Below are positions 10,105 through 47,738 of a stretch of DNA of 64,000 bases, piece by piece. The notes beneath the pieces were generated by a model. The model saw nothing but the letters and a program-made list of their open reading frames with translations. It was not told the DNA's origin and ran no database searches. Each line of letters starts with the position of its first letter. The stretch's first letter is position 1. The DNA is taken from assembly GCF_000372725.1 (NCBI RefSeq), contig NW_005201792.1, positions 103,452-167,451 on the forward strand. Reading direction: 5' to 3'. A program made the position numbers and the translations under genes. Source of the DNA: Emiliania huxleyi CCMP1516 (taxonomy: Eukaryota).

Positions 10105-11113
10105 CTACCGTATCGATCCCCGCCGCGCCTCTGCCTCCTCCTGCCGCCGCCTCGACCAGTCCGCGTCGCTCTCCCGGAAGCGGCCGGAGATGAGGTGCCG
10201 CTCGCGGCGCGTCGCCTGCACCTCGTGCTCAATCGTCGAGTCGTAGATGACCAGAGAGCCGGCGGTGGGAGGCAGCTCGCGCGGCGCGGCGCTCGCGTCG
10301 TAGACGACGAGCGAGCCGCCGTCGGCGGCGCTCCAGTCGTCCGGCGTCAGGTAGAGCAGAAAGCTGATCGAGTTGCGCCGAGGCTCCGACATCGCCGGCT
10401 CCTAGAGCGGGAGCACAGGGGACGGAGCCCCGCGGTGAGTCCAAGGGCTGCGAGTACAGCGAGTACCGTCGAGCACAGCCGAACGCACATCATGTCTACC
10501 CGAGGTGACTGTTGTGTGCCCAAGCAGCACTGCCACCGCCGACGTAATCTCTGTGCAGCACAAAGGCAACGGCGCACTCTCGTCAGCACAGACGTGCAAA
10601 TCACGCAAGGGGCTCGGACACGTGGGTCTGGTTCTAGTCCGGGCACGAGGGTCTGGTACTCCGTCGTCTAGGCGCCGGCTCCTCGTCGCGGTGGCGCATG
10701 AACTTTGCGCCGGGCGGGTAGCGCATCAGGTGGAAGCCGCCACCGCCCAGCAGCGAGCGCGAGCTGTGGCGAGCCAGACCGCCGCGGAGCTCGTCGAGCT
10801 GCACGAGAAGGTTGCCAAACGGGAGCGCCGCGGCGTCGGCGAGCTGCGCGCGAAACGCTGGCTCGAGCAGATCGGTCTGTATCGAATCCAGGTCGTCGCC
10901 CGCCTGAGGTATGTCGGCGAGCACGCGCACCATGGTTTCGCGCGACTCGACGAGTTCGTCGCCTGAGAGCCAGCCTTGCTCGACGTGCGCAAACCCGTCG
11001 CGCATCGCCGCCGCGGCACGCGCAGCGAGCGAATCGATGTCCGCTCGGCGGCTCGGCGTGGCGGGGCCGGCAGTGAGGCCGAGGAGCGGAGGAATGACGT
11101 GCAGCACGCACAT
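10105..11113 (-). CDS. 2OG-Fe(II) dioxygenase (prolyl-hydroxylase/SM-20-like); one intron
   Basis: MRYPPGAKFMRHRD (HxD), SFLLYL, DGGSLVVY, GSLVIYDS, EHEV and RHLISGRFR motifs. Intron at about 10402-10681. Confidence 0.85.
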
Positions 11114-30307: not shown

Positions 30308-32900
30308 CTAACACGAAAGGCCCGTGAGTGCCACATAGTTGACTTTGTCAATGCCATTCAAGCCACGCTCCAAATCGGCACCTCCTAACGGCGACGAGCA
30401 CTCGTCGCCGGCGCCGGACGCCACATCCTTCCCAGGCGCATTCACCCCCGAGTATTGCTCGCTCAACAAGCCACGCTTCAAATGGGCCATACCGCCTTGC
30501 TGCCTCCACGGCGATGTGCGCCTGGCGATGGTACGCGCCGCATCCTCCCATTCCCGTACATTCGACCCCTCGTGTACATAATGTTGACTTTGCGTGCGTT
30601 GGCATCGACGGGGAGGGTTGCCCTGAACGGTAAGGCACTGCGAGTCGTCGAGCTGCGTGAGCTTCGATACGCTGGAGGCTGGCCCAACATGCGTTCCATC
30701 GGGGACGTGCAAGCCAGGATTGACCAGAGCAAGGTGCGAGAGATGTACGCCGGCGCCAATCGTCAGTGGAGGAAACTCCATGTAGCCCTTTCCAAAATTG
30801 TGCGCGTAAGCCGACGCTGCCCCGTCAGTGCTGAAGCATTCGCCAATCGTGATCAACGACGTCTCCGGCTGCATGGGGTATAAGCCACCACGAGCAGGAA
30901 CCTCGGAGTGCCGTCCGACGGTGGCCCCCGCTAGTCGGAAGAGAGTGCGCGGAAAAGACGTGCCGGTCCATAGTCGAGCTATTGGCATTGTTAGAGAGGT
31001 GGCCGTTCTCGCGTTGAGTGCCAACGCGCTGGTCCAACGCGAATGCTCCCTCGTGTGCCAGCCGTACGCCTTGCCAGGCTGCGCGAGAGAACCCATTAGC
31101 GAGCGAGAGAAGAGGACGGAGCACACGGCGTAGAGTGGCTGGACGAAGAGCGGTTGGATGACGCATGCGGTGCAGATGGTGATGGTAGAAAACATGACGA
31201 AGGTACCCATGTCCGCGCCGCGGTCGAGTAGGCCTAGTAGCACGGGGCCAGAGGTAGTCGCGTGCCGCTGAGCCCACTCAACGGCGTCCGAAAGCTCGGC
31301 CTCAGATGTGACGCGGCGAGCTGGTGCACCAACGGAACGCGCGAGCGCGCACGCATCGAAACCGTTCAGAACCGTGCAGAACGGCTGTTGGCCGGCCGCG
31401 CGCTGCAGTCCGGACATCATACCGAGCTCGCCATCTGTCAGCACAACAACAATCACGGGAAGTCGGGCGCGCACCGCAGACGCGAGCTCCAGGCCCGTCA
31501 TTCGCCACGCGCCGTCGCCCACAGTCGCAACCGCGATCCGGTTGGAGTCGGAGACTCGAGTTTGGCGCACGAGGGCGAGCGCTGCGCCGAGCGCAGCAGG
31601 GACTGCGAAGCCCATGCTCGAGTAATTGACGGGCCCCATATATCGCGCGCCACGCACACGGAGCGACTCGGAGCCATATGTCGTGCCATTGCCCGAGTCG
31701 GTGGTGAAGGTGGCGTCTGGCATGCACGCCTGCAGTCGCCGGAAGAGCACGCTCGGGCTCACCCATGTATCAGCAGCGCCCCGTACGGCTGCCTCCTCGT
31801 CTGCCACGGTTGTGGCAAGCGCTGCATGCGCTCTGCACACACACGCCGCTAGCTCCTCCTGCACAGATGTGGCCGGTGCGTGGCCGATCGACTCGAGCGC
31901 CCTCAACAGCTCACGCACGAAGGCAGCAACGTCGGCGACGATGGGCACAGCGCCACGCACGTTGGCGCCCGGCACGCCCGGCTCAATGTCGACGTGAAAC
32001 ACCGTGACCCGACGGCTGGGCCAATTGTAGTGCGCGGAGGCGAGCTCTCCCATCCGTGCGCCAAGGATGACCCACACGTCGCACGCCTTGTCGAGCGTGC
32101 GAAGCGGGGGTGGGATTGCAGGCCCTACTCCTGGCCATAGCCAGCGTGGGTGGTCCTCCGGGAAGACACCCTTGCCGGAGAAGGTCGTGGAGACGATGGC
32201 GCCCGTCCTCTCCGCAAGCTCGACGACCAGAGGTGTCGCCTTGGCAGCCCCAAGGCCAAGATGGAGGCGTGGCTGTTTTGCGTTGCGCACGGCGTCCACC
32301 ACCGAGGCCACGGCTGACTGCAGCGCAACGTCAACAGCCGGCAAGGTGGGCGTGGTCTGATGCGAGACATCGGCTAACGTGGAGACGCTACGGCGCACCA
32401 GCACAGCCACCGGCGCGGGACACCCACCGCGTGCAGCCGCAGCCGCCAACCGCAGCGCGCCTGGCGTCGCCATGTCGAAGCTCTCCGTGCACAGCTTCGC
32501 CGCCACGTCCATCGCGATGCTGTCTGATTCAAGACCCTCGGGCTCGAGCACGAGCACGAGCATTGGCGTGCAGTCCATTAACGCCTCCCCGACCCCTGAG
32601 AAGCTTGCGGGGGGCGCAGTACCCTCGATGAGGATCGCGCCAATCGGCCCACCTTCACGGTTGCGCCGCGCAAAACCGTCCGCGATGAAGCCCGATGACT
32701 GGCCATCGGTCGCCACTATCACCTGCAGTGCCGCCGTCTCATTTAGCCGCGATACCTCACCTCGGATGGCGTGCATCAGATCGAGGAGCTCTTGGCTGGC
32801 CGGCGATCCCACGATGAGCCCGACACCCGCCTCCTGCAGCTCTGCGCACATGCGTGGAACGAGTGCACGCCACTCGGCGGAGGGCGAGGCGATCGGCGAA
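30308..32900 (-). pseudogene. ThDP-dependent enzyme (acetolactate synthase-like) fused to an NRPS-terminal beta-helix fragment; probable relic of a PKS/NRPS megagene
   Basis: GFIADGFAR, TTFSGKGVFPEDHP, SMGFAVPAALGA and VGDGAWRMTGLEL, followed by LFRLAGATVG..ITIGE..PPLTIGAGVHLSHLALVNPG. Ends VALTGLSC-stop. No clean N-terminus. Confidence 0.65.
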
Positions 32901-33306
32901 AGTGACCGTTCGGCGGGCTGTGGGGAGAGGTGCTGCTGCAATGCTCTCCACTCGACGATGACGCACGACGCGCACGCGGCCACCATGTGTGTCATCGACG
33001 TCGATGTGGCGGCCTCGCGTGAGGATGAGCCTTTCGTCGCGGCGTTCGAGCTGCAGACAGAAGTACCGACCGTGCTGAACGAAGTGCGCATCCACGCCGT
33101 CGAGTGGGCATGCGATTGCGAAGCAGCATGCAGCGATGGTGATCGCGACTCTGGCAAGCGCCGTTTAGTCCCGCCGTTTATAGTGACTTGCAGCACCGAT
33201 GGAAGTACTTTTGCGCCGCCCATCGTCACTCACGGCGGAACAGCGACAGGCATGGAGGCGAGGGCGCTCGTCCTACGGAACGCGCCGCGGCGTCGGCTGG
33301 CGCGCG

Positions 33307-33914: not shown

Positions 33915-35298
33915 TCACGACCTTTCATGCGGTGTCTCGCTCCGTGCCGGCGAGGAAGCGCTGGAACTTGCGCTGGACTCGCGGAGAGCAGCGGCGGCGG
34001 CCAGCTCGGCGAGACTCTCGACCGACGGTGTGCGCGGCCTTCCGGCCCCGGCCGCGGCGACGGCCTCGCAGACTCGCCGGTTCATGTCGAGCGCGCGCTG
34101 CCGCGACAGGGCGAGAGTGGAGGAGGAGTAGGAGAAGCGGTAGGTTCGCGAGGGTCGCCCCTCGGCGCTCTCCCACTCGTCGAGCAGGGAGGGAGGCGTG
34201 CGGAGCACGTGCGCCTCTGCGGGTGCCAGCGCGGCGCGGCACAGCTCGTGCAGCTCGGCCGGGCTGCGCGGCGCCCCGTCGAGCCAAAACGCATTGTCAA
34301 AGTCGAACTCGAGTCGCGAGACGCCTGCCGCAGCCTCGCGCGCGCCACTCGCCCCGCGAGGCGCCACGCCGCCGGCCAGCACGGCGCGCGTCGCACCGGC
34401 GCAAGCGGCCGCGGCGGCGCGAGAGGAGGGCGAGTCGAGGCCGTCGCCCTCGCGGACGAGGACGTGCGAGACGAGGGGGCGGACTGGCCCAACCCTGGCC
34501 GCCCGCCGGATGCCGCGCCCACCCGGCACGTAGCCCAGCTCGGCGAGCGGGCCGAGGTCCGCCTGACGGGGAGAGGGGAAGGACGCTTCTGTGAGGGCGA
34601 GGAGAGGCCCTGGAGAGACCGTGGCTGCCTCCGGCGCAACGACGGGCGGCCGCACCTCGAGCGCCGAGACGAGGAGGAGGCCCGCCTGCGCCGCCGCCAG
34701 CTGCACCTGCAGGAGGCAGCCGCCGGTGGGCGGTGAGCGGTGGCGGCCTTGGCGCGCCGCATCGCCGTTGTAGGAAGAGGCGCCGCTGCGGCGAGGCGCG
34801 CGCCTGCCACGAGTCTCCGATGGCGCGCTGGTTCGGGTCGAGCCGCGTGCCGCCCTGGCCGGCGAGGAGCGTCACCCAGATCTGGCCGTCGCGAGAGAGG
34901 ACGGAGGCGGCCGCCGCGCAAAAGTCGCGCAGGAGCGCGCGCTGCCGCTGGATCTGGTTCCGCCTGCGTGGCTCGGGCGGCGCCTGCGGGAGGTTGAAGA
35001 CGACGCGGTCCCACTCCTCCGACGGGTAGCGGCGGCTCAGCTCACGCGCGTCGACGCCAAAGTCGCATCGCGCACCCGCTGCGCGCACTCGCGCCAGCGC
35101 CTCCGCGGCGCGCGGATACCGCTCGTGCAGCTCCATCTCCTCCTCGAAGGCGGTCGCGGTGACCTCGATGGCGCCGCGCTGCGTGGCACAGAGCGCGGCC
35201 GCGTAGCTGAAATCGGCCTCGCCGCACAGCAGCACGCGCGATGGGCCCGAGAGCGGCTGGACGCCGAGGTCGAGCAGCGTGGGGAGCCGGACCAGCAT
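33915..35298 (-). CDS. FDXACB1: FDXACB1-like protein (BMT5/DUF2431 methyltransferase-like domain plus ferredoxin-fold anticodon-binding domain)
   Basis: VLLCGEADFSYAAAL, FGVDAREL, DRVVFNLP, LLRDF, IWVTL..GQGGT, DSWQ; C-terminal GRPSRTYRFSYSS..ALSR. Confidence 0.85.
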
Positions 35299-35483
35299 GG
35301 AAGGTAAGATTGGAAGGTATTGCAATAGGCTTCAGGGGCGGTGCTCTTTTTTATGTGTGGTTCATGAAGAGCCAACGTAAAAACTGTTTTGACCGCGCAA
35401 GACAAAGGGTGGCTAAGGGCTCTGCCCGCAAGGCGCCCGCGTCGCTGACGCGGTACAGTACCATTGACTAATCCCGAATGTGT

Positions 35484-36560: not shown

Positions 36561-36968
36561 AGGTGGCGTTTATTTTTGCTTGGGCGGCCCTCATGCTGAA
36601 ATTCTGCAAAAACCCTGGCCGGCCCCTGCGGTGCCCCTACCTACCTACCTACCTACCTACCCTACTTATGGGAAACTAAAAAAGAAATCACTCGATGGGT
36701 GAAGGTGGGGTACTATACCAACTAGAGTGATGGTTGGTGGTACTCTCCTGCATCCACAGTCCTTCTTGTGACATGGGAGGCCACTCTCAAGCCCTACAAG
36801 CATCAGATCACCCATTTGGGGAGAGTTGACATCGTGATTTCCGCGGAAAATTTCTTTTTCTGCTGTGAAAATTCCAGCTTGAAGAGAGGGAAAACCCCGA
36901 CGGGAGGGCCCAGACCTACCCTACCTACCCCGGCATGAGGGCCGGCCAAGCAAAAATAAACGCCACCC
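36561..36968. mobile_element. 408-bp MITE, Mutator-like by TSD length
   Basis: About 36-bp terminal inverted repeats (aggtggcgtttatttttgcttgggcggccctcatgc / gcatgagggccggccaagcaaaaataaacgccaccc) flanked by the direct repeat gtttcactc (36552-36560, 36969-36977). Confidence 0.88.
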
Positions 36969-37012
36969 GTTTCACTCATTCAGTCAAGCCGGTCACCAGG
37001 AGAGAGGATCGG

Positions 37013-37992
37013 ATGGTTCGCCGCCGGCGGTCCGCCTCGCTCACCTCATCGCCCAGCCGTGCCCGGACATCGCCCAGCCGTGGCCGGAGCAGCAGCCGCA
37101 GCAGCCAGTCTTACGATAGTCGTAGCCGCTGCAGAGGCCGCAGCAGTAGCAGTAGTCGCAGCAGTAGTCGTAGCAGTAGTCGCAGCAGTGGCCGCAGCAG
37201 TGGCCGCAGCAGTAGCAGCAGCCGCGGCAGAGGCCGCCGCCGCCGCAGAAGCAGCAGCAGCAGCGACGGCAGCAGCAGCAGCAAATCCAGCAGCCGCAGT
37301 CGCAGCCGCCATCACAGCCGCAGCCGCCGTCCCAGCCGCCGGAGCCGCCGCCGCCGCAGCCGGAGCCGCCGCCGCAGCCGATCCCACAGTTCACGAAAGG
37401 CGGCGGAGAAGGTGGCGGAGAAAGCGGCGGAGAAAGCGGCGGAAAAAGCGGCGGAGAAAGCGGCGGAGAAAGCGGCGGAGAAAGCGGCGGAGAAAGCGGC
37501 GGAGAAAGCGGCGGAGAAAGCGGCGGAGAAAGCGGCGGCAGATAAAGCTGCGAAGCAGGCCGCCGTCCTCCCTCTTTCTGCCTCTCCGCCTCTTGCGCGG
37601 CACCTGGCCGGTCCGTTCCGCGGGATGCGGCGGGCGCAGGTGCCGGCGCAGCGCGTCGATGCGGAGTGGGGCTGCCGGTGCGGCGCCACCAACCCCGCGG
37701 GCGCGAAGCTGTGCCAGACAGCCGGGTGCGGGACCTGGTTCTGCCTCGGGTGCGGCAGGCTCGGCCACCAGCTCGTGTACTGCAAGGCGACGCGCCAGGC
37801 TGCGCCGCAAGCGGTGACGGCGCCGCCGGAGCCTGCGGCAGTGCCTGCGGCAGAGCACGCGGCAGAGCATGCGGCCGGTGCGGCCGGTGCGGCGCGGGAG
37901 ATGCGGTCGGTGGAAGTGTGGGGGCCTGCCCAGTCGGACCAACGAGGTTCGAACTCTTCGCCCTCTTCTCTGGGGTGGGCCGGGTGTGCGCT
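37013..37992 (+). CDS. SR-rich protein with (AAEK)n repeat, RanBP2-like zinc finger and CCHC zinc knuckle; truncated by gap
   Basis: RS-rich N-terminus, W-x-C-x-CGATN..C..C and CLGCGRLGHQLVYC. Confidence 0.55.
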
Positions 37993-38092
37993 NNNNNNNN
38001 NNNNNNNNNNNNNNNNNNNNNNNNNNNNNNNNNNNNNNNNNNNNNNNNNNNNNNNNNNNNNNNNNNNNNNNNNNNNNNNNNNNNNNNNNNNN
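37993..38092. other. Assembly gap (100 N)
   Basis: Run of n characters. Confidence 1.
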
Positions 38093-38149
38093 CTCCCCCT
38101 CCCCCTCCCCCTCGCCCTACCCCTACCCCTACCCCTACCCCTACCCCTA

Positions 38150-41100
38150 ACCGCAGGCGGCCCTCGGCCTCGACGGAGCGGAGCTGTGCGGCGCCACCAT
38201 CGCCGTCCGGCGCGGCGGGAGCGACGCCTCACTCGCTGCAGAGGAGGACGCTTCTCCCGCGCCGTCCGCGGCGCGCCTCCCTCCCCCTCTGCCTCCGCCT
38301 CCTCCGCCACCCCACGCCTGCAGCTGTGCGCAGGCTGACGGCTCGGCGTGGACTCGGGTCGGGTGTGTGGAGAGGAGTCGGGCGGACCAGGCGCCGGACG
38401 AGCCCACTGCTGGAGCGGAGGGTGGTGCGGAGGGTGGTGCGGAGGGTGCCGTGAGCGAGTGGACTCGGGTCGAGTCTGTGGCGGAGGAGGGCGTCCCGCG
38501 CCACTACGACTGCCGCATCGCCGCCAGCGGTGGAAGGGTTCTCGCACGCGACCCAGCCGCCTCGCCACGCGCCACGGCAGCAGCAGCAGCAGCAGCAGCA
38601 GAGCCGCCCGCCTCATGGCAGGAGGAGCCCCCACCGCCCCCACCGCCCCCCCCTCCACCTCCGCCGCCGCCGCCGCCGCCGCCGCCTCTCCAAGCCCGCG
38701 CCTACCCCGCGCGAGCGGGCCGCCCCCACCCCCCATCGCCGCCGCTCGGCCCCCCCCACACTCCGTCGCCGCCGCTCGCCTCTCTGCTGTGCGTCGGGAG
38801 CCGGGACCCAAACCCGCTGCTGTCGCTGCGGCTGCCGCTGCCTGGCTCGTTCGAGATTGGCCGCGACGAGGGCTGCGACGAGACCATCGGAGAGTGCGCC
38901 GCCATCTCGGCCTCGCACTGCAAGCTGCACCTGCGGCTTGGCGGGGGCGGAGATCAGCCGGCCGGAGAGCGGGCGGTGGAGGTGTGGCTGGAGGACCGCT
39001 CGACCAACGGCACATTCGTCGGCGGCGCCAGGCTCGGAAAGGGCAACACGCGCCGCCTCGTCCCCGGCGAGCGCTTCTCGCTGCTGCACGACGGCCCGTA
39101 CGCCTTCGAGCTGCGGCTCGGTCCGCCCCGGCCAGACAGCGACCCGTCGGAGGAGCTGCGCAAGCTCAACTTGCCCGACGGAGGGCCGGGCAGGTAGGCT
39201 CGGCCAGCAGGGGGCGGGGGAGGGGCGGGCGGGGCGAGAGGTGCGCCGAGGTGCGTGTCCCGCCCCTCGCAGGTCCGCCCCGCGAGCCGGCGTCGACGGC
39301 TGCTGGCGGTGCGGCTGCTGCGGCAGCGCAAACTACCCCCGCCGCTCGACGTGCTTCCGATCCGCCTGCGGCTCCTCCCGCGACGCGCGCGGGACCGCCC
39401 TGGTGCAAGCGTACCTGGACAGGCTGCAGAGCTCCTCCGACTCCGCCCCCGCCTCCAAGACCACCGAGGGTCGCGGCCATCCACGCGCTGCCCCCGCCGC
39501 TGCTGCCCCTTCTGCGTCTGCTGCCCCTGCTGCCTCTTCCGCCTCTGCTGCCTCTGCTGCCTCTGCTGCCTCTGCTGCTCCTCCGAGAAGGCTGCGAGAA
39601 GCCTCCGAGAAGCCTCCGAGAAAGCGACGGGCTGCTCCTGCTGCGCTTGCTACGCCTGCTGCGTTTGCTGCGCCTGCTGCGCCTGCTGCCGCTGCTGCCG
39701 CTGCTGCCGCTGCTGCCGCTGCTGCCGTCGCCGCGTCGTCGACGGAGCCGCGCGAGGAGCCGCGCGTGGAGAGCGCGGGCCCGGCGGAGCACGGGGCGCG
39801 GCGCAGCAAGCACGAGCGCGTGGTGCGCTCGCCTCCACACGGCCTCCGCTCACGGCCTGCCCTGCGGCACAGGACAGAGCGCGCGCAGCCGCCGTAGCGA
39901 GAGTCCACGGCCCCCCCCCTCGCAGGCGCGGCCGATCACAGAGTGGAGGCAGAAGCCCTACAAGCCCATCCAGAGGCGGATGCTGCCCGCGGACGGCGAC
40001 GAGGCGCCGCGCCCCAAACACCGATTCCTGGCGCGGGAGAGGAGGCGTCGCCTCGACCTCGGACGTGTCCTCCTAGGCGACCAAGGAGACGGTGCTTCCG
40101 GCGGGAGCGGACCCGCTGAACCACGTGCACCCTTCAGCGCGGTGCTCTCGCCCCTGCACGCTCACGCGAGCCCGCCACCCGCCCTGCACCCCCACACGCC
40201 GCGAGGCGCAGGTACACGCGGCAGAGCTGGTCCTCATATCTCCCCATATCTCCCCATATCTCCCCATGTCTCAGGTACACGCAGCAGAGCTGGTCCGTCC
40301 ACCAGTACAACCGACTCAACGAGAGCTTGCGCGGCGGCAGCTCCGGCGGTCGCTCCGCTCGAGGAGGGGCGACGCACGGCGCGGAGCTGGCACGCCGGAT
40401 GCAAGCTGCGGCGGCGCCACCGCCCCCCGACGCCCCCCTCGAGTCGGTCGACTGGCCGCTCGAGCCGACCGCGCCGACTCTCGGCCGGGAAGCGGGCGGT
40501 GCGACGGACGTGCCGATGCTGCGGCTCTCCGGGCCGGCCCCGACGCTGCGAGGTTTCCGACGGCTGCTGGAGGCGTGCGCGGCTGTCGTCGGCCCGGCGC
40601 GCGTGCATGAGGCAGCGCAGCAGGGTGGGCAGCGCTTGTGGCCCATCTTTGTCCTCTCGCGCGGCCGGCCGGAGACGGCGCATCTGCACTGGGGTACAGA
40701 GCACGCGCTCGGCGGGGAGGGCGAAGGCGAGGGCGAGGGCGAGGGCGGGGGCGAGGGTGCGCTAGTGGTGGCGGTGGTGTCGCCGGAGGAGGAGGCGGAG
40801 TATCGGCGCTGCTGGCCTGGCTCGCTGCTGCTGGCGCTGCCTCAGGCGGGCAGGCCGGTGGGGTACGCTCGGCACGTGCTTAAGCGGGCGCTGCAGTGGC
40901 GCACGCCCTTCTTCTGGATGTGCGACGACAACCTCTCGACGTTTGTGCGCATCGAGCGCGGGAGCGACGGCCTGGCGCGGAGGCACACGCAAGGCTCGCG
41001 CTGCACCACCTCGTGTGTCAGCACGCCCTTGGGGCGAGATCTGTCCCTCACGCGGCACTCGTGACACGTCAGGTCCGCTCTTTCGCGAGGCCTTCATGCA

Positions 41101-43321
41101 CGTGCAGCGGCGCGAGGGCATCTCGTCCATCGCTCTCGCGGGCTTCCTCCGCTCCAACGGCACCGAGACGTCCAAGACGTACACCGAAGTACTCGACAAC
41201 GTCAAGGTGTACAAGTGCTGCCTGCTCAACTCGCTGCAGTGCGCGGGCGTCGAGTACGTCGCGCCGCTCGCCAACTTTGAGGACGTCGCCTTCAACCGCG
41301 AGCTGCTGCTGCGCGGCCGGCGGCTGCTCAAGGTGCAGCGCTACGCGTACCGTGCGCACATGGCGGCGAGCGGGGGCTGCGCCTCGCGACGAGGCGACAG
41401 TGCCGGCGGCGAGCTCGTCCACCCTTCGTACCGACACGAGGAGCTGAGCGCCGCGGATCTCGCCACCGTCGCGAGGCTGGAGGAGTGGGTGCGCCGGGAC
41501 GAGGCAAAGCCGATGCCCCGGCGGCTGCAGCGGCGCATCGACCTGCAGGCCGCCTCCCGCACGCAGCCTTCGCATGCAACAAAGGGCGAGAGGCGGCCGC
41601 GCCGCCCTGCCCGCCGCCGCTCTCGCCGCGACGAGGAGGAGAGCAGCGAGGAGGAGGAGAGCGGTGAGGAGGGAGAGAGCAGCGAGGAGGAGGAGGGCAG
41701 CGAGGACAGCGGCGGGGAGAGCGGTGAGGCGAGCACCGACGAGGAGGAGAGCGAGGAGCAGGAGAGCTCCTTCGAGGTGGGAGGCCGTGTCGTCCTCGAG
41801 TATTCCGACGGCGCGCTGTACCCGGGCGAGATCTTGAGCTTTGACGGCGCGTCCCGCTTGTACACGGTGCGGTGCGATGACGGCGAGCTGTTGGAGGACG
41901 TCTCGCTGCACGAGATGCTGCGAGAGGAGGAGCAGGGGCGGGCGGGCGGCGGGGAGTCGGGCGAGGAGGCGGGCGAGGAGGCGGACGAGGAGTCCTCGGA
42001 CGACGGAGGCTTCGGCGGCGGCGAAGGGACGGCGGAGACAGCGGCGGCGGTTGCGCGGGCAGAGCGTGTGACGGAGGTCGACGGCCTCGTGCTCCACCTC
42101 TCCTCGAACGCCACCGGGTACAGGGGCGTCGCGAAGAGGCGGGGCAGCAGCCGGCGCGAGCGGTTCCAGGCATGCTTCCGGCGCAAGTCGATTGGCTGCT
42201 ACACGACGGCGGTCGAGGCGGCTGTGGCGTACGCGCAGCGGGCGGCCGTTACGCAGGCGATCGACTGGATGCTCCAGCAGGTCGTGGCGGAGGTGAGTGA
42301 GGAGGGCGAGGACGGCGAGGACGGCGAAGAAGAGGGCGAGGGCGAGGAGGCACCAGTGCCGGTGGCGGAGGAGGCGGAGGGCTTGCGTCTGCATCTGTCA
42401 AGCAACGCCGCCACCGGCTACAAGAATGTGCGGGAGTCCTCTGGCCGCTTCGAAGCGCGGATCTGCCTAGGCGGCTCGGGACGGCAGATCGCCATCGGCC
42501 GCTTCGACACGGCAGTGGAGGCGGCGGTGGCGTATGCGCGGAGGGTCGGACAGGCAGAGGAGGCAGGGGTGGAGGCAGCGGAGGAGGCAGCGGAGGAGGC
42601 AGCGGAGGAGGTAGGGGAGGAGGCAGCGAAGGAGGTAGGGGAGGAGGCGGCGGAGGAGGCAGCGGACGGGGCGTCAGAGGCAGTGACGATGGAGGAGGCA
42701 GCAGAGGCGGCGGCTGGCGCTGGCTATCACGACCCCAGCCAGCAGGTCTTGGGGGCCGACGAGCGGCGGCGGCTCGAGGCGACCGTTGGCTACGTGGTAT
42801 GCGGCATCAACGGCTGCTGCCTACAGTATGGCCACTGCGGCGAGTGCCTCTTTGAGCTCAACGGCCGACGCTGCCGCCAGCGGCCCACCGCGCCGGCCCC
42901 GCCGGTGAAGCGGCGCCGCACGTCGGCGGCAGGGCAGCCCTCGACGTCGGACCAGAGCGGGGATGCGCCGCTGGCAGCCGAGGCTGCTCAGCCGGCACCG
43001 GAGCCGCCGCCTGCGGCACCGCGTCTCGCAGACGTGAGCGTGTACGAGCGCGGCGCGGGGTGGCGGAAGCCGGTGGACACGCCCTGCGCGGAGTGCGGCG
43101 GGTGCCACGACCCCACGCAGACGCTGCTGTGCGACGGGGACGGCTGCGATCGCGCGTACCACCTCTCCTGTCTCAAGCCGCCGCTCGAACACGTGCCCGC
43201 AGGGAAGTGGCTGTGCCCCGGCTGCACCGAGCGCTGGAACGCGAGCGAGGCGGGCTCGCGCGAGCTGGCGCGCAGCCTGTACGAGCAGGAGATGCGCGAG
43301 GCGCGCAACCTGCGCCGGTAA
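38150..43321 (+). CDS. Multidomain chromatin protein: FHA, GREB1/TAGT-like GT-A glycosyltransferase, acidic tract, Tudor, 2x AP2-like, Cys/His motif, PHD; 5' end uncertain
   Basis: FHA: FEIGRDE..ISASHC..LEDRSTNGTFV. GT: WPIFVLSRGR, EEEAEYRRCWP..LALP..VGYARH, FWMCDDNL, EDVAFN. Tudor: FEVGGRV..DGALYPGEI..YTVRCDDGE. AP2: LHLSSNATGYRGV..TAVEAAVAYA x2. PHD: CAECG..LLCDGDGCDRAYHLSCLKPPL..P.GKWLCPGC. Confidence 0.8.
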
Positions 43322-43774
43322 CCCTTCCCGGCGGGGTCATGCGGAGTGTCTCTGCACGCGTACGTACATATGACGCGCCGTCTCTGAGTACAGATGTACA
43401 GTACGTTCTCATTCTCAGCGTCGCTTCGTTTGTGGGGAGTCTGTGGAGAGTCTGTGTGGAGTCTCTCGCACGGCGGTCCACGGTGTGTGGCGAGACGAGC
43501 GTGCGATCGCCGATCGAGTTCGAGAGAGTCGCGCCGGTCGCGGACTCGTGTGCGCTATAGAGATTAGAGATAGAGTCTGCTGCACGGCGCGTCGGCGTAC
43601 AAATGCGCTCTGTGGTTGTTTACTTACAACTTTCTCAGTGGAAACCAACAATAGTCAATACGCGCGCTGGCACGGACAGCGCCGCCCCCACAGGCACTCT
43701 GCTTGCGCCGCCACGCCCGGTCCCGTGGCGCCAGAGGTCACCGCCAACGCGCCCCCGGGCAAGTAGAGGACACG

Positions 43775-44148
43775 CTAGCCCTTCTTCATCTGCTTGCCGG
43801 CGCGGATGACCTCGTCGACGAGCAGCAGCTGCGCCGCAATGACGGCGGCCGAGTCCAGCATCTGCCGCTTGACGCGGAAGTTGTCCCACAGCCCGGCGGC
43901 GCACGGGTCGAGCGGCTCGCCTGTCTCCACGTCGAGGCCCACCTGGCCGGAGGGAGGCGTGCGGCGACACGTCACGCGCAGGCACTCGCTGGCAGGCACT
44001 CACTGGCACGCGGCGGTCGCTGGCATGTCTCGTTCAGTGTGGGCGCGCCGGTGCGGCGGGGTTGCCAGAGGCGGCAGGCGGCGGGCGCGGCGGGCGCGCG
44101 ACGGCGGGACCGCGGGGCGTGGGAGGCAAGGGAGGCAGGGGAGGGAAG

Positions 44149-44196
<48 letters not shown>

Positions 44197-47052
44197 CCGC
44201 GCCTTTGGCGAGCCCGCCTCCTGCTCCTCCTGCAGCTTGAGGAGCGCGTCCTGCGCGTCGTAGCCGGCGTTGTCCGCGAGCGTCTTCGGGATGACGAGCA
44301 GCGCGTCGGCGAAGGTCTGCACGCCGAGCTTTGCGCGGCCCTGCACCTTCTTGCGGTACTCCATCAGGTGCGCGTGGCAGAGCACCTCGATGCCGCCCGC
44401 GCCCGGCAGCAGCTGGCCGTCGGTGACGGCGTTGGACACGGCGCGCAGCCCGTCGCGGACCGCCTCCTGCGGGGGGCGTGTCGTGGACGTGTCGTGGACG
44501 TGTCGTGGACGTGTCGTGGACGTGTCGTGGACGTGTCGTGGACGTGTCGTGGACGTGTCGTGGACGTGTCGTGGACGTGTCGTGGACGTGTCGTGGACGT
44601 GTCGTGGACGTGTCGTGGACGCGTCCCCGGCGGCGGGTGGCGGGGCCGAGGGGCCGCTCTCCTTGATCTGCGAGATGACGTGCGGGTGCGCGCCCTTGAT
44701 GAGGATGGTGCACCTGCCGTGTCGCGGGCGTGGCGTGGGCGCGGTCGCGTGCAAGGGGCCGGCCGGGGTCGGGTGGGCGGTGGCGCACGAGAAGGGGTTC
44801 GAGACGCCCTCGAGGAAAGTGTACGTCTCCTCGCCCAGCGTCTGCTCCGACACCTCCTCCGCGTACCCGAGCACCTGCACGCGGCGGGGCGGGGCTCGCC
44901 GCATGCCCCGGCCCACGCTGCACACACGGCCCCTGCCGTGCCGCTCATATTGACGGAGGGGTCTGGAGGGGTCTGGAGGGGTCTAGGGGGCGCCCAGGAG
45001 GTGTAAAGGAGGCGTGCAGGAGGTGTGCAGGAGGTGTGCAGGAGGTGTGTAGGAGGTGTGCAGGAGGTGTGCAGGAGGTGTGTAGGAGGTGTGCAGGAGG
45101 TGTGCAGGAGGTGTGCAGGAGGTGTGCAGGAGGTGTGCAGGAGGTGTGTAGGAGGTGTGCAGGAGGTGTGTAGGAGGTGTGTATGGAGCGTCGCCTCGGG
45201 CGTCATGTCGTCGATCGAGTTGACCTGCTCGCCGCCGCACGCGAGGGTGATGCGCTCCATGTTGCGCCTGCGCGGGGGGCGGGGGGCGGGTGGGTGCGGG
45301 TGGGGTGGAGCGGGTGAGTGGGGGGGTGCGGCGCGGGTGTGTGATGGTGTGTGGTGTGCGGTGTGTGGTGTGGTGTGGGTGAGGTGTGTGGAGGGTGTGG
45401 GAGTGGTGTGGGCGATTGGTGATTGAGTTGCGCGGCACCGCTTTGCGCGGCGCAGCGCGAGGATGCCCTCCTTGGCAAGGAGGTCGAGGGCGAGCGGGTC
45501 GATCCCCTTCTGGTTGATGACCACCATCGTCTCGCCCTCGCCGCACGCCTTGCGCTTCAGGTCGATGATCAGCTTTGTCTTGTCGTCGACCCACTTGCGC
45601 TCCGCCTGCACCATCTTCTCGCGCTCCTGCTCACACGCGCACACACCACGCAACGCTCAAAGACGGGACCCCTCCCCCTCCCCCTCCCCCTCCCCCTCCC
45701 CCGCCATCCCTAGCGTCGCTCCGGTGAGCGAGAAGTAGAATCCCGACGTCGGGCTGGCGGCTGCGGGCTGGCGGCTGCGGGCTGGCGGCTGCGGGCTGGC
45801 GGCTGCGGGCTGGCGGCTGCGGGCTGGCGGCTGCGGGCTGGCGGCTGCGGGCTGGCGGCTGCGGGCGGGGGGTGAGGGGGGTGAGGCTCCTCTGCGTTGG
45901 AGTAGTAGAAGCCCGAGTTGACCTCGGAGCGCATGTACTCGAGGTCGTAGTTGATGGTGAGGACGCGCACCTAAGAGCAGCTCATTGAACGTGAGAGGTG
46001 AGACCAGAAGACAAGACAGAGTGCGCTCGAGGTGGACAAGCGCCTTGCTGAGCTGCTTTGGCATGCCGGGGTGCCTCCCGCCATGGTCGAGGACGAGGCC
46101 CTTGACGAGGCGAGAGTCGGTGCCCGCCTGCAGGAGCGAGGAGACGCGCGTCGGGAGCGGGCCGAGGAGCGGGCGGACCGGGAGGAGAGCAAGGGGAGGA
46201 GAGCAAGGGGAGGAGAGCAGCCAGGGGAGAAGGGCAGCATCCGGGGGAGGAGCGGGGGGGGGAGGGGAGCAGGCGGCCGGGCAGTGGGGTGGAGCGGCTG
46301 GCAGCCGCGAGCGGGTGGGTGCGGCGTGGGAGGGGGTGGTGGGGGGGGGGGGGTGTCGGGGCAAGGCGGGGATGTGGCGGGGCGAGGGGCGAGAGGGCAG
46401 GAGGGTGGTGCGGAGAGGGCAGGGGAGGCAAGCGGGAGTGGAGGAGGGTTGCCTTGTGCTGCATGTGCATGATCTCGACCATGTGCAGGTCGAGCGGCGT
46501 GTCCGGCTTGCGGATCGTCAGCACCGCGTCCACGCAGATGGCGGTAAACATGTCCGCCAGCTCGCGGTGCATCTTAGTGCGGAGCGAGCACTGCGCAATC
46601 TGGAGGAGCAGGTCGCGGTCGGCGCAGTCCTTGGCGAGCGCGGTCCGGTCGATGTACTCGAGCAGCGACGTCTTCGCCAGCTCGATCCCCTCGCACAGCA
46701 GTCGCGGGTGCACCCCGTCCGAGAGGTGGCGCTCTGCCTGCTTCATCATCTCGCCGACGACGAGGACGGCGGAGGTGGTGCCGTCGCCGGTGATGTCGTC
46801 CTGCGCGGTGGCGATGCGCGCAATCATGCACGCGGTCGGGTTCTGGATCTGCATCTCGTGCAGCAGCGTGTTCCCGTCCTTGGTGAGCTTGATGTCGCCC
46901 GCGCCGCCGACAAGCATCTTGAGCGTGCCCTTGGGACCGAGGTTGCTCTTGAGCACGTCCTGCAGGCCGCGGGCCGCGTTGATGTTCATCAGCGACGCCT
47001 GGCCCGACTTGAGCACATCGGCGTTCGGGTTGAGCTGCTGGGTGGCCGCCAT
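43775..47052 (-). CDS. CCT6: T-complex protein 1 subunit zeta (chaperonin CCT6); multi-exon
   Basis: [70 protein letters not shown]. Confidence 0.97.
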
Positions 47053-47738
47053 TGACACGTCGCTGGGCGAGCTGCTGGCCCAACGAGCGGCAACGGAGGC
47101 GTTGGTACCCGCTTTGACGGTAATTCTTTTATTCCCCTCACCATGTTCCCACGATGATCCTGGCTGTTCTTCACCTTTCTACCTACCTACCTACGATGAG
47201 TTCAAAGACGTCATCGCCTATGGCGTCTGCAAACGGGCATGCCACTGACGCCGCAGGTAGGTGCGTCGCCATCCTCACGGTGGCTCCGTGGCCGCCGCCT
47301 GCTCCTCCTGACCTCCTCTGGTGCCATGTCTGCCTCGATGCCCAGCTCAGCTCGGATGTGACTCGGATGTCTGCGGCAGCGCGCACCGACACCGCTCCAT
47401 TCGGCTCCTTTGACGCGAGCCGCGTTAAGGCGAAATGCTCGCAGAGTTCGGCCAGACAGAGGCACAGAGCCTTGCGCGCTTCGAGGTAGTTGCAAGTTGG
47501 CGGGTGAGTGAGTGTGAGTGTGTACACACACACACACACGTAGTTGGCGGCGCAGATGAGCGAGATCGTCATCGGCGAGGTCACTCAGAAACGTCCGGGC
47601 CTCGTCCTTCGCACAACGGTTGTGGCAAAATTGTCTTTGGCGCAACGAGGTCTCACGGCCTCGACGACACGTCTGGGAGGACGCCGGCACAGCGCTAGCC
47701 CATTCAACCCCGCCCTCCTCGTTTCGACACACAGACCT

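Follow-up and report, generated by a model that had tools for sequence, protein, structure and literature searches.

An expressed Emiliania huxleyi gene joins an intact TAGT-family glycosyltransferase domain to FHA and PHD domains: a candidate writer of sugar-modified DNA bases

Gene structure and transcription

We analysed a 64,000-nucleotide (nt) stretch of the Emiliania huxleyi CCMP1516 genome (RefSeq assembly GCF_000372725.1, contig NW_005201792.1, positions 103,452 to 167,451 of the forward strand), here called the window, which has a GC content of about 70%. One gene in it encodes a single spliced protein in which an intact glycosyltransferase domain of the TET-associated glycosyltransferase (TAGT) family is combined with an FHA domain and a PHD finger. 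A preliminary description of the window had proposed such a gene as the writer of a base-J-like DNA mark, relating it to GREB1 and the trypanosome base-J glucosyltransferase (JGT). Statements about the literature below rest on passages of the sources cited.

The stretch is present in 14 of 15 listed sequencing runs (5 studies). Four runs from 4 studies were mapped, one recorded as RNA and three presumed to be RNA, and splicing is visible in all of them. Six splice joints are identical across the four runs (Table 1); four of the six introns (GC-AG or GT-AG) lie between the FHA and glycosyltransferase exons, and one interrupts the catalytic domain. The spliced frame is open from 38160, taken as residue 1, to the stop at 43319-43321 and encodes 1543 amino acids (aa) with the domain order FHA, RanBP2-like zinc finger, extension, TAGT, acidic tract, Tudor-like domain, two AP2-like repeats and PHD. 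The relative P0004, a single open reading frame (ORF) of 1316 aa, shares 56% identity with the spliced model across 516 aa and is collinear with it through the small exons, so this uninterrupted ORF independently confirms the splice model.

The motifs and domains named in the preliminary description lie where it placed them, and its proposal that FHA through PHD form one gene stands, given the six joints, the open frame and the same FHA-TAGT-Tudor-PHD order in P0004. It had read the motifs in frame from the glycosyltransferase to the PHD finger, which is correct only from the second half of the TAGT domain onward: the first half lies in a different genomic frame (ORF 40120-41064, against ORF 40766-43321 for the second) and is joined to it by a 79-nt GC-AG intron that was missed. 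It also overlooked the RanBP2-like zinc finger and, ahead of the TAGT domain, an extension of about 165 aa that is conserved. The FHA and PHD domains both score above their Pfam cut-offs, and the Tudor and AP2 modules, although located as described, score weakly.

We considered and rejected two simpler explanations of the architecture. FHA and TAGT as separate genes are contradicted by the joints in all four runs and by the single-ORF relatives P0004 and P0023, and mis-assembly of 38711-44548 is contradicted by a metagenome contig, L001, that is 99% identical across this interval and so supports the assembly independently.

RNA contigs have their 5' ends at 36988-37001, and a contig over 37509-37986 continues into the N gap at 37993-38093 with a depth similar to that of the next contig. 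The gene therefore probably starts at ATG 37013 with an Arg/Ser-rich exon, whose link to the remainder we infer across the gap. This probable first exon has a single, weak Pfam match, to a zinc knuckle (zf-CCHC_4, E 0.12), and contains a stretch that, by motif resemblance, we take to be RRM-like. Immediately ahead of the gap, over 37924-37992, each of the four runs shows the same departures from the window, 5 letters and 2 single-base gaps, a sign that the assembly is in error at the edge of the gap.

Table 1. Features of the glycosyltransferase gene and of its surroundings in the window
Feature	Position	Strand	Basis
Probable first exon: ATG 37013, Arg/Ser-rich tract, (E/K/A) repeats, start of presumed RRM-like stretch	37013-37992	+	Within ORF 36869-38338
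Exon after N gap	38160-38270	+	Joint in 4/4 runs
Intron, GC-AG	38271-38333	+	RNA contigs (joint 38269-38333)
Exon: poly-Pro tract and FHA domain (about 38850-39115)	38334-39193	+	PF00498, 39.7 bits
Intron, GT-AG	39194-39272	+	4/4 runs
Exon: RanBP2-like zinc finger (about 39304-39369) and Ala-rich linker	39273-39822	+	Match and alignment via P0023
Intron, GT-AG	39823-39925	+	4/4 runs
Small exon, with the next small exon the start of the extension before TAGT	39926-40003	+	Joints in 4/4 runs; collinear with P0004
Intron, GC-AG	40004-40076	+	4/4 runs
Small exon, extension	40077-40141	+	Joints in 4/4 runs; collinear with P0004
Intron, GT-AG	40142-40274	+	4/4 runs
Exon: remainder of extension and first half of TAGT (from 40639)	40275-40993	+	PF20691; conserved Arg 40666, Asp-Asp 40924-40929
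Intron inside TAGT domain, GC-AG, 79 nt	40994-41072	+	Spliced out in 4/4 runs
Second half of TAGT, then conserved helical tail	41073-41530	+	Glu-Asp 41279-41284, Gly-Gly 41372-41377; no Pfam match on its own
Acidic Glu/Ser tract	41630-41767	+	Sequence; acidic linker at the equivalent place in relatives
Tudor-like domain	41768-41910	+	PF21743, 20 bits, under cut-off
AP2-like repeat 1	42092-42240	+	phrog_99, E 1.8e-4
AP2-like repeat 2	42389-42550	+	phrog_99, E 7.6e-7; AtERF1, E 0.37
Small Cys/His-rich motif	42800-42860	+	Sequence; no Pfam match
PHD finger (43085-43225), conserved C-terminal tail, stop 43319-43321	43079-43321	+	PF00628, 34.1 bits; 68% identity over 81 aa with P0004 C-terminus
TCP-1/cpn60 chaperonin subunit	43775-47178	-	Pfam scan of window ORFs
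BMT5-like rRNA methyltransferase	34300-35331	-	Pfam scan of window ORFs
Thiamine-pyrophosphate enzyme	30311-33229	-	Pfam scan of window ORFs
2-oxoglutarate (2OG)-Fe(II) oxygenase fragment	10108-10401	-	2OG-FeII_Oxy_3

The catalytic domain

The first half of the domain alone matches the TAGT profile PF20691 with 49 bits (cut-off 27.5), and close relatives in which the domain is unsplit score 55-69 bits. The residues R686, D772-D773-N774, E864-D865, G895 and G896 make up an R…DD…ED…GG series, and among 109 aligned rows the Arg is conserved in 100, each of the first two Asp in 108, the Glu in 97 and the following Asp in 102, with all seven sites, the two Gly included, falling between 97 and 108. 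The pattern R…DDD…EDY/F is common to JGT and to DNA-modifying phage GT-A enzymes (bioRxiv 2023.12.21.572611). The window protein departs from it in having Asn for the third Asp and Val for the aromatic residue; the same DDN and EDV occur in P0090, a TET-fused relative. By these residues the TAGT active site is predicted to be intact.

We modelled the fold on the relative P0020 (52% identical to the window protein over 445 aa) using 100 sequences; an earlier model from an 8-row alignment, with a predicted local distance difference test score (pLDDT) of 49, was discarded. The P0020 model has a mean pLDDT of 76, with the catalytic domain mostly above 90, and adopts a GT-A fold, as the preliminary description had anticipated. 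Compared with PDB structures it retrieved assorted GT-A enzymes, none standing out (best Z 12.0, root-mean-square deviation 3.6, 197 residues aligned, B4GALNT1). Matches to viral structures were far stronger (top E 1.5e-11): several of the top rows are unnamed, most of the named ones in the first 12 are TAGTs of phages, and the first match named GT2 comes at E 2.2e-5.

In the ESM Atlas, P0003 and P0006 likewise have TAGT clusters as neighbours. The best 60 of 80 PDB sequence matches include no relative of the TAGT domain. The proposed place in the TAGT/GREB1/JGT family is thus upheld, and an ordinary GT2 enzyme was rejected, as Pfam gives no Glycos_transf_2 match and the viral fold matches favour TAGT. 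The protein has basic runs resembling nuclear localisation signals and no membrane-like hydrophobic segment, its highest hydropathy window being a poly-Ala run.

Reader and accessory domains

The FHA domain (39.7 bits) clears its cut-off of 20.7 bits, and the G-R, S-x-x-H and N-G-T residues by which such domains bind phosphothreonine are visible. The PHD finger, of the C4HC3 type, is also above its cut-off (24 bits). A Trp is typical of PHD fingers that read H3K4me3, and because the window PHD does not have it, the sequence hints at the unmethylated H3 tail as the ligand.

The Tudor-like domain remains below the 27.2-bit cut-off of PF21743, and finds the KDM4A and LBR Tudor chains in PDB at E about 0.006. 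At the aromatic positions it departs from the Tudor domains of the relatives, and a profile built from the latter does not match it, so the Tudor position seems to have been retained while the module in the window diverged or was replaced. At 41854-41891, within this domain, a second contig with 6 differences is present in two of the four runs, and 2 of those differences recur in a third run; a paralogous copy of the Tudor-like module is therefore expressed.

Both AP2-like repeats match phrog_99, an HNH endonuclease family, at profile positions 208-253 in its C-terminal part, which we take to be an AP2 domain. AtERF1 is the sole PDB sequence match of the repeats, and they have no Pfam match, PF00847 included. 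Over the second repeat, across 42396-42582, RNA depth exceeds that of the gene body by a factor of 90 to several hundred and the contigs have loose ends; a near-identical module is thus present in many other transcripts, suggestive of a family that has expanded or is mobile. The RanBP2-like zinc finger has no Pfam match in the window itself; the position in P0023 that aligns with it matches Zn_ribbon_RanBP at E 5.6e-4.

Relatives and phylogeny

Searching the full library with the first TAGT half gave 104 matches, of which 88 were scanned against Pfam, 3 close matches and 13 short fragments being left out. All 88 match TAGT, 85 of them above the cut-off, and ten carry a second Pfam family: HsdR-like superfamily 2 (SF2) helicase (3), SNF2, RAMA, PHD, FHA, Tet_JBP (2) or a membrane transporter (1). 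In nine of these ten relatives the second family is a DNA, chromatin or phospho-signalling domain. The organisms named among 20 clusters examined are Cymbomonas tetramitiformis, Polarella glacialis and Symbiodinium; the Cymbomonas protein, P0130, has the architecture RAMA-TAGT-SNF2. TAGT-SNF2 fusions were found twice, in different branches (P0130 / P0077; P0072), the Cymbomonas one with RAMA. JBP2 likewise pairs SNF2 with a base-J enzyme (PMC11065753).

P0004 carries FHA (47 bits), TAGT (55 bits), a weak Tudor-like domain and PHD (38 bits) in the order found in the window; it has no AP2, and Pfam detects neither a RanBP2-like finger nor an RRM in it. In P0023 one ORF, also without AP2, runs from FHA through a zinc finger of the RanBP type into the first half of TAGT. 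An N-terminal domain without a name is common to P0004 (residues 1-226) and P0023 (residues 32-140), with 46% identity over 117 aa; tblastn did not find it in the window. A homologue search limited to proteins of 3514-5000 aa found none, so long fusions of 1000-2500 aa are under-sampled. No close viral or prokaryotic source emerged from tblastn of phage records or from pattern scans of viral contigs and prokaryote genomes, scans that need near-exact motifs and are hence weak.

A quick IQ-TREE tree was built from 93 of the 109 domain rows, near-duplicates being removed; truncated rows and the duplicated TET fusion P0107 were not part of the set from the start. It has SH-aLRT (Shimodaira-Hasegawa-like approximate likelihood ratio test) support only, is rooted at the midpoint, carries a long-branch warning and includes no row known as JGT or GREB1. 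A 16-row clade (support 100) contains the window protein and lies within a 76-row group of mostly long proteins (support 99), and 17 mostly short prokaryote-like rows, P0090 among them, stand apart from that group. A Tudor-like domain follows TAGT in 8 of the 16 clade rows, as found with a profile seeded with 6 of them. The extension before TAGT, mostly modelled as folded in P0020, is present in 49 of the 76 rows and in none of the 17. The enzyme thus belongs to a eukaryotic clade whose members include proteins of dinoflagellates and prasinophytes, some of them fused to SNF2, HsdR-like helicase or RAMA domains.

Two further groupings were seen in the tree. P0041, P0051 and P0061 form a subclade (support 100) with TAGT behind an HsdR-like SF2 helicase, echoing the helicase-plus-TAGT layout of GREB1. 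In at least two subclades, proteins of Polarella and Symbiodinium are joined by many divergent TAGTs (P0033-P0096), a pattern that would fit a TAGT expansion in dinoflagellates, the lineage richest in 5-hydroxymethyluracil (5hmU).

Proposed function and alternatives

We see about an even chance that the protein is a nuclear, self-targeting writer that puts a sugar onto a hydroxymethylated pyrimidine, 5hmU or 5-hydroxymethylcytosine (5hmC), in DNA. PF20691 membership, the phage-TAGT fold matches, the R…DD…ED motif, the DNA and chromatin fusions and the nuclear-type features all speak for it. TAGT members that act on DNA include JGT (PMC11065753) and phage enzymes (bioRxiv 2023.12.21.572611; PMC13390438), and fusion to chromatin domains is the usual route by which prokaryotic DNA modifiers become epigenetic writers (PMC4738411). 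Dinoflagellates make 5hmU with TET/JBP enzymes, and 12-68% of their thymine is 5hmU (PMC11572971).

In this scheme a TET/JBP-type oxygenase encoded elsewhere in the genome would make the hydroxymethyl base. The PHD finger and Tudor-like domain would dock onto histone tails, with FHA binding a phosphothreonine partner, and the GT-A domain, holding a nucleotide-sugar by the Asp-Asp motif, would transfer the sugar to the base hydroxyl. The AP2-like repeats, added in this lineage, may bias the choice of site. P0004, the one relative of full length, lacks them, so guidance by DNA sequence seems to have been acquired late in this lineage and would not be central to the putative system. A broader claim, that haptophyte-type algae and the wider clade (dinoflagellates, some green algae) contain a DNA base with a sugar modification that has so far escaped detection, the writer being a TAGT guided to its sites by its own histone, phosphoprotein and DNA readers, we put forward tentatively, as a possibility with somewhat less than an even prospect.

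A number of observations weigh against a DNA-directed writer. No TET/JBP gene was found in the window (778 ORFs searched with a 2-sequence profile and 137 ORFs with Pfam); the 2OG-Fe(II) oxygenase fragment was rejected as such a neighbour since it matches 2OG-FeII_Oxy_3 and not Tet_JBP. The adjacent genes are housekeeping genes, and the tree parts the window clade from its single TET-fused row. TAGT stands alone in 78 of the 88 relatives, many of them fragments, and the membrane-transporter and aldo-keto reductase fusions look like gene-model noise, so the fusion counts are soft evidence. The whole gene is never covered by one RNA contig, the contigs breaking inside exons, at repeats. Dinoflagellates are described in the passages of PMC11071213 cited as not synthesising base J, despite having relatives of this enzyme and abundant 5hmU; either the product has been missed, therefore, or the clade does not glucosylate 5hmU. 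GREB1, a member of the TAGT family, is reported to be a protein O-linked N-acetylglucosamine (O-GlcNAc) transferase (PMC7968844; PMC6163654). The PHD, Tudor and FHA domains would fit a protein substrate equally well.

These last points bear on what we regard as an unlikely but substantial alternative, a nuclear protein glycosyltransferase with GREB1-like chemistry, which its readers bring to chromatin and which places sugar on Ser/Thr of histones or of a phosphoprotein held by FHA. FHA, PHD and Tudor domains are all protein binders, GREB1 is reported to O-GlcNAcylate ER-alpha, and the folded extension peculiar to the eukaryotic clade could change the acceptor; the absence of base J from dinoflagellates that have relatives would also be accommodated. 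The GREB1 paper, however, notes that there is no robust in vitro assay with the purified protein (PMC7968844), and the independent SNF2, HsdR-like helicase and RAMA fusions point to DNA. An enzyme directed at RNA or acting co-transcriptionally, glycosylating a hydroxylated base of the nascent transcript, would make sense of the RanBP2-like zinc finger that follows FHA in both the window protein and P0023, and of the Arg/Ser-rich first exon with its presumed RRM-like stretch. Acquired modifiers commonly shift from DNA to RNA substrates (PMC4738411). We nevertheless judge it improbable, as P0004 has no such finger or RRM in Pfam, the first-exon link crosses the assembly gap, and the passages of literature examined describe no RNA-acting TAGT.

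We give an equally slim chance to a second-step or repair-linked enzyme, one that adds to a base already carrying a sugar, or that caps oxidised pyrimidines where DNA is damaged after recruitment by FHA. Damage signalling often involves FHA domains, and the first TAGT half matches the PHROG family of the T6-type TAGT, which likely adds a second glucose (PMC13390438). That match is weak (E 0.042), however, and the 137 window ORFs scanned against Pfam include no first-step glucosyltransferase or repair gene. Finally, the protein might be a catalytically silent chromatin scaffold or the product of a mis-joined gene model, as could be argued from the fact that no contig bridges the entire gene and that other transcripts also contain AP2-like and Tudor-like modules. 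With every catalytic motif retained, six joints seen in 4/4 runs, the 99% identity of L001 and the presence of FHA and TAGT within one ORF in P0004 and P0023, this is very improbable.

If the broader claim is right, the modified base would be a base-J-like epigenetic mark outside Euglenozoa with its targeting logic reversed. Glycosylated DNA bases in eukaryotes are described as limited to kinetoplastids and algae close to them (PMC11065753), and no glycosylated form of 5hmU is reported from dinoflagellates, in which the same TAGT clade occurs, in the passages of PMC11071213 cited. An expressed TAGT with its catalytic residues in place, wired to PHD, Tudor and FHA, is a concrete candidate enzyme for a DNA-sugar mark. 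Either outcome would be informative: the enzyme would reveal a mark on DNA that is new, or another way in which nuclear proteins are glycosylated, and the latter is relevant to the question of which substrates GREB1-family enzymes use.

Our literature search, conducted mostly at listing level and with Iyer et al. 2013 outside its scope, found no TAGT fused to FHA, Tudor, AP2 or PHD and no TAGT of haptophytes or dinoflagellates. Iyer et al. 2013 reportedly defined the TAGT family and surveyed its eukaryotic members, and may already list this architecture. Seven passages of the PMC4738411 supplement contain no TAGT entry.

Comparison with known systems

The window enzyme resembles the phage TAGTs in its above-cut-off PF20691 match, its GT-A fold (in the relative's model) and its R…DD…ED…GG motifs. 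The phage-like TAGTs in the set examined, however, are for the most part about 250 aa long and stand alone, or are fused to TET, whereas the window TAGT has the 165-aa folded extension and chromatin readers, belongs to a separate eukaryotic clade and has no TET gene in the window.

With JGT, the partner of JBP1 and JBP2, it shares the enzyme family and the catalytic motif pattern (bioRxiv 2023.12.21.572611; PMC7968844). JGT has no sequence specificity of its own, and JBP1/2 choose the site (PMC7055916); readers built into the transferase would therefore be a different design, in which specificity would lie within the glycosyltransferase itself.

GREB1 and GREB1L likewise hold a TAGT domain inside a large eukaryotic protein (PMC7968844; PMC6163654). 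GREB1 differs in having a domain that binds Zn and an SF2 helicase that is permuted and inactive, and it is mainly cytoplasmic, with a protein substrate reported (PMC7968844). The window protein has FHA, Tudor-like, AP2-like and PHD modules instead; neither the GREB1-type Zn domain nor the permuted helicase was found in it, the region before TAGT consisting of FHA, the zinc finger and a low-complexity linker with no helicase match.

A like pattern of recruitment by fusion is offered by algal DNA methylases and TET/JBP enzymes of prokaryotic origin that are fused to chromatin domains, and haptophytes have adenine methylases fused to an FHA fold (PMC4738411). In the window protein, unlike those fusions, the catalytic domain is a glycosyltransferase.

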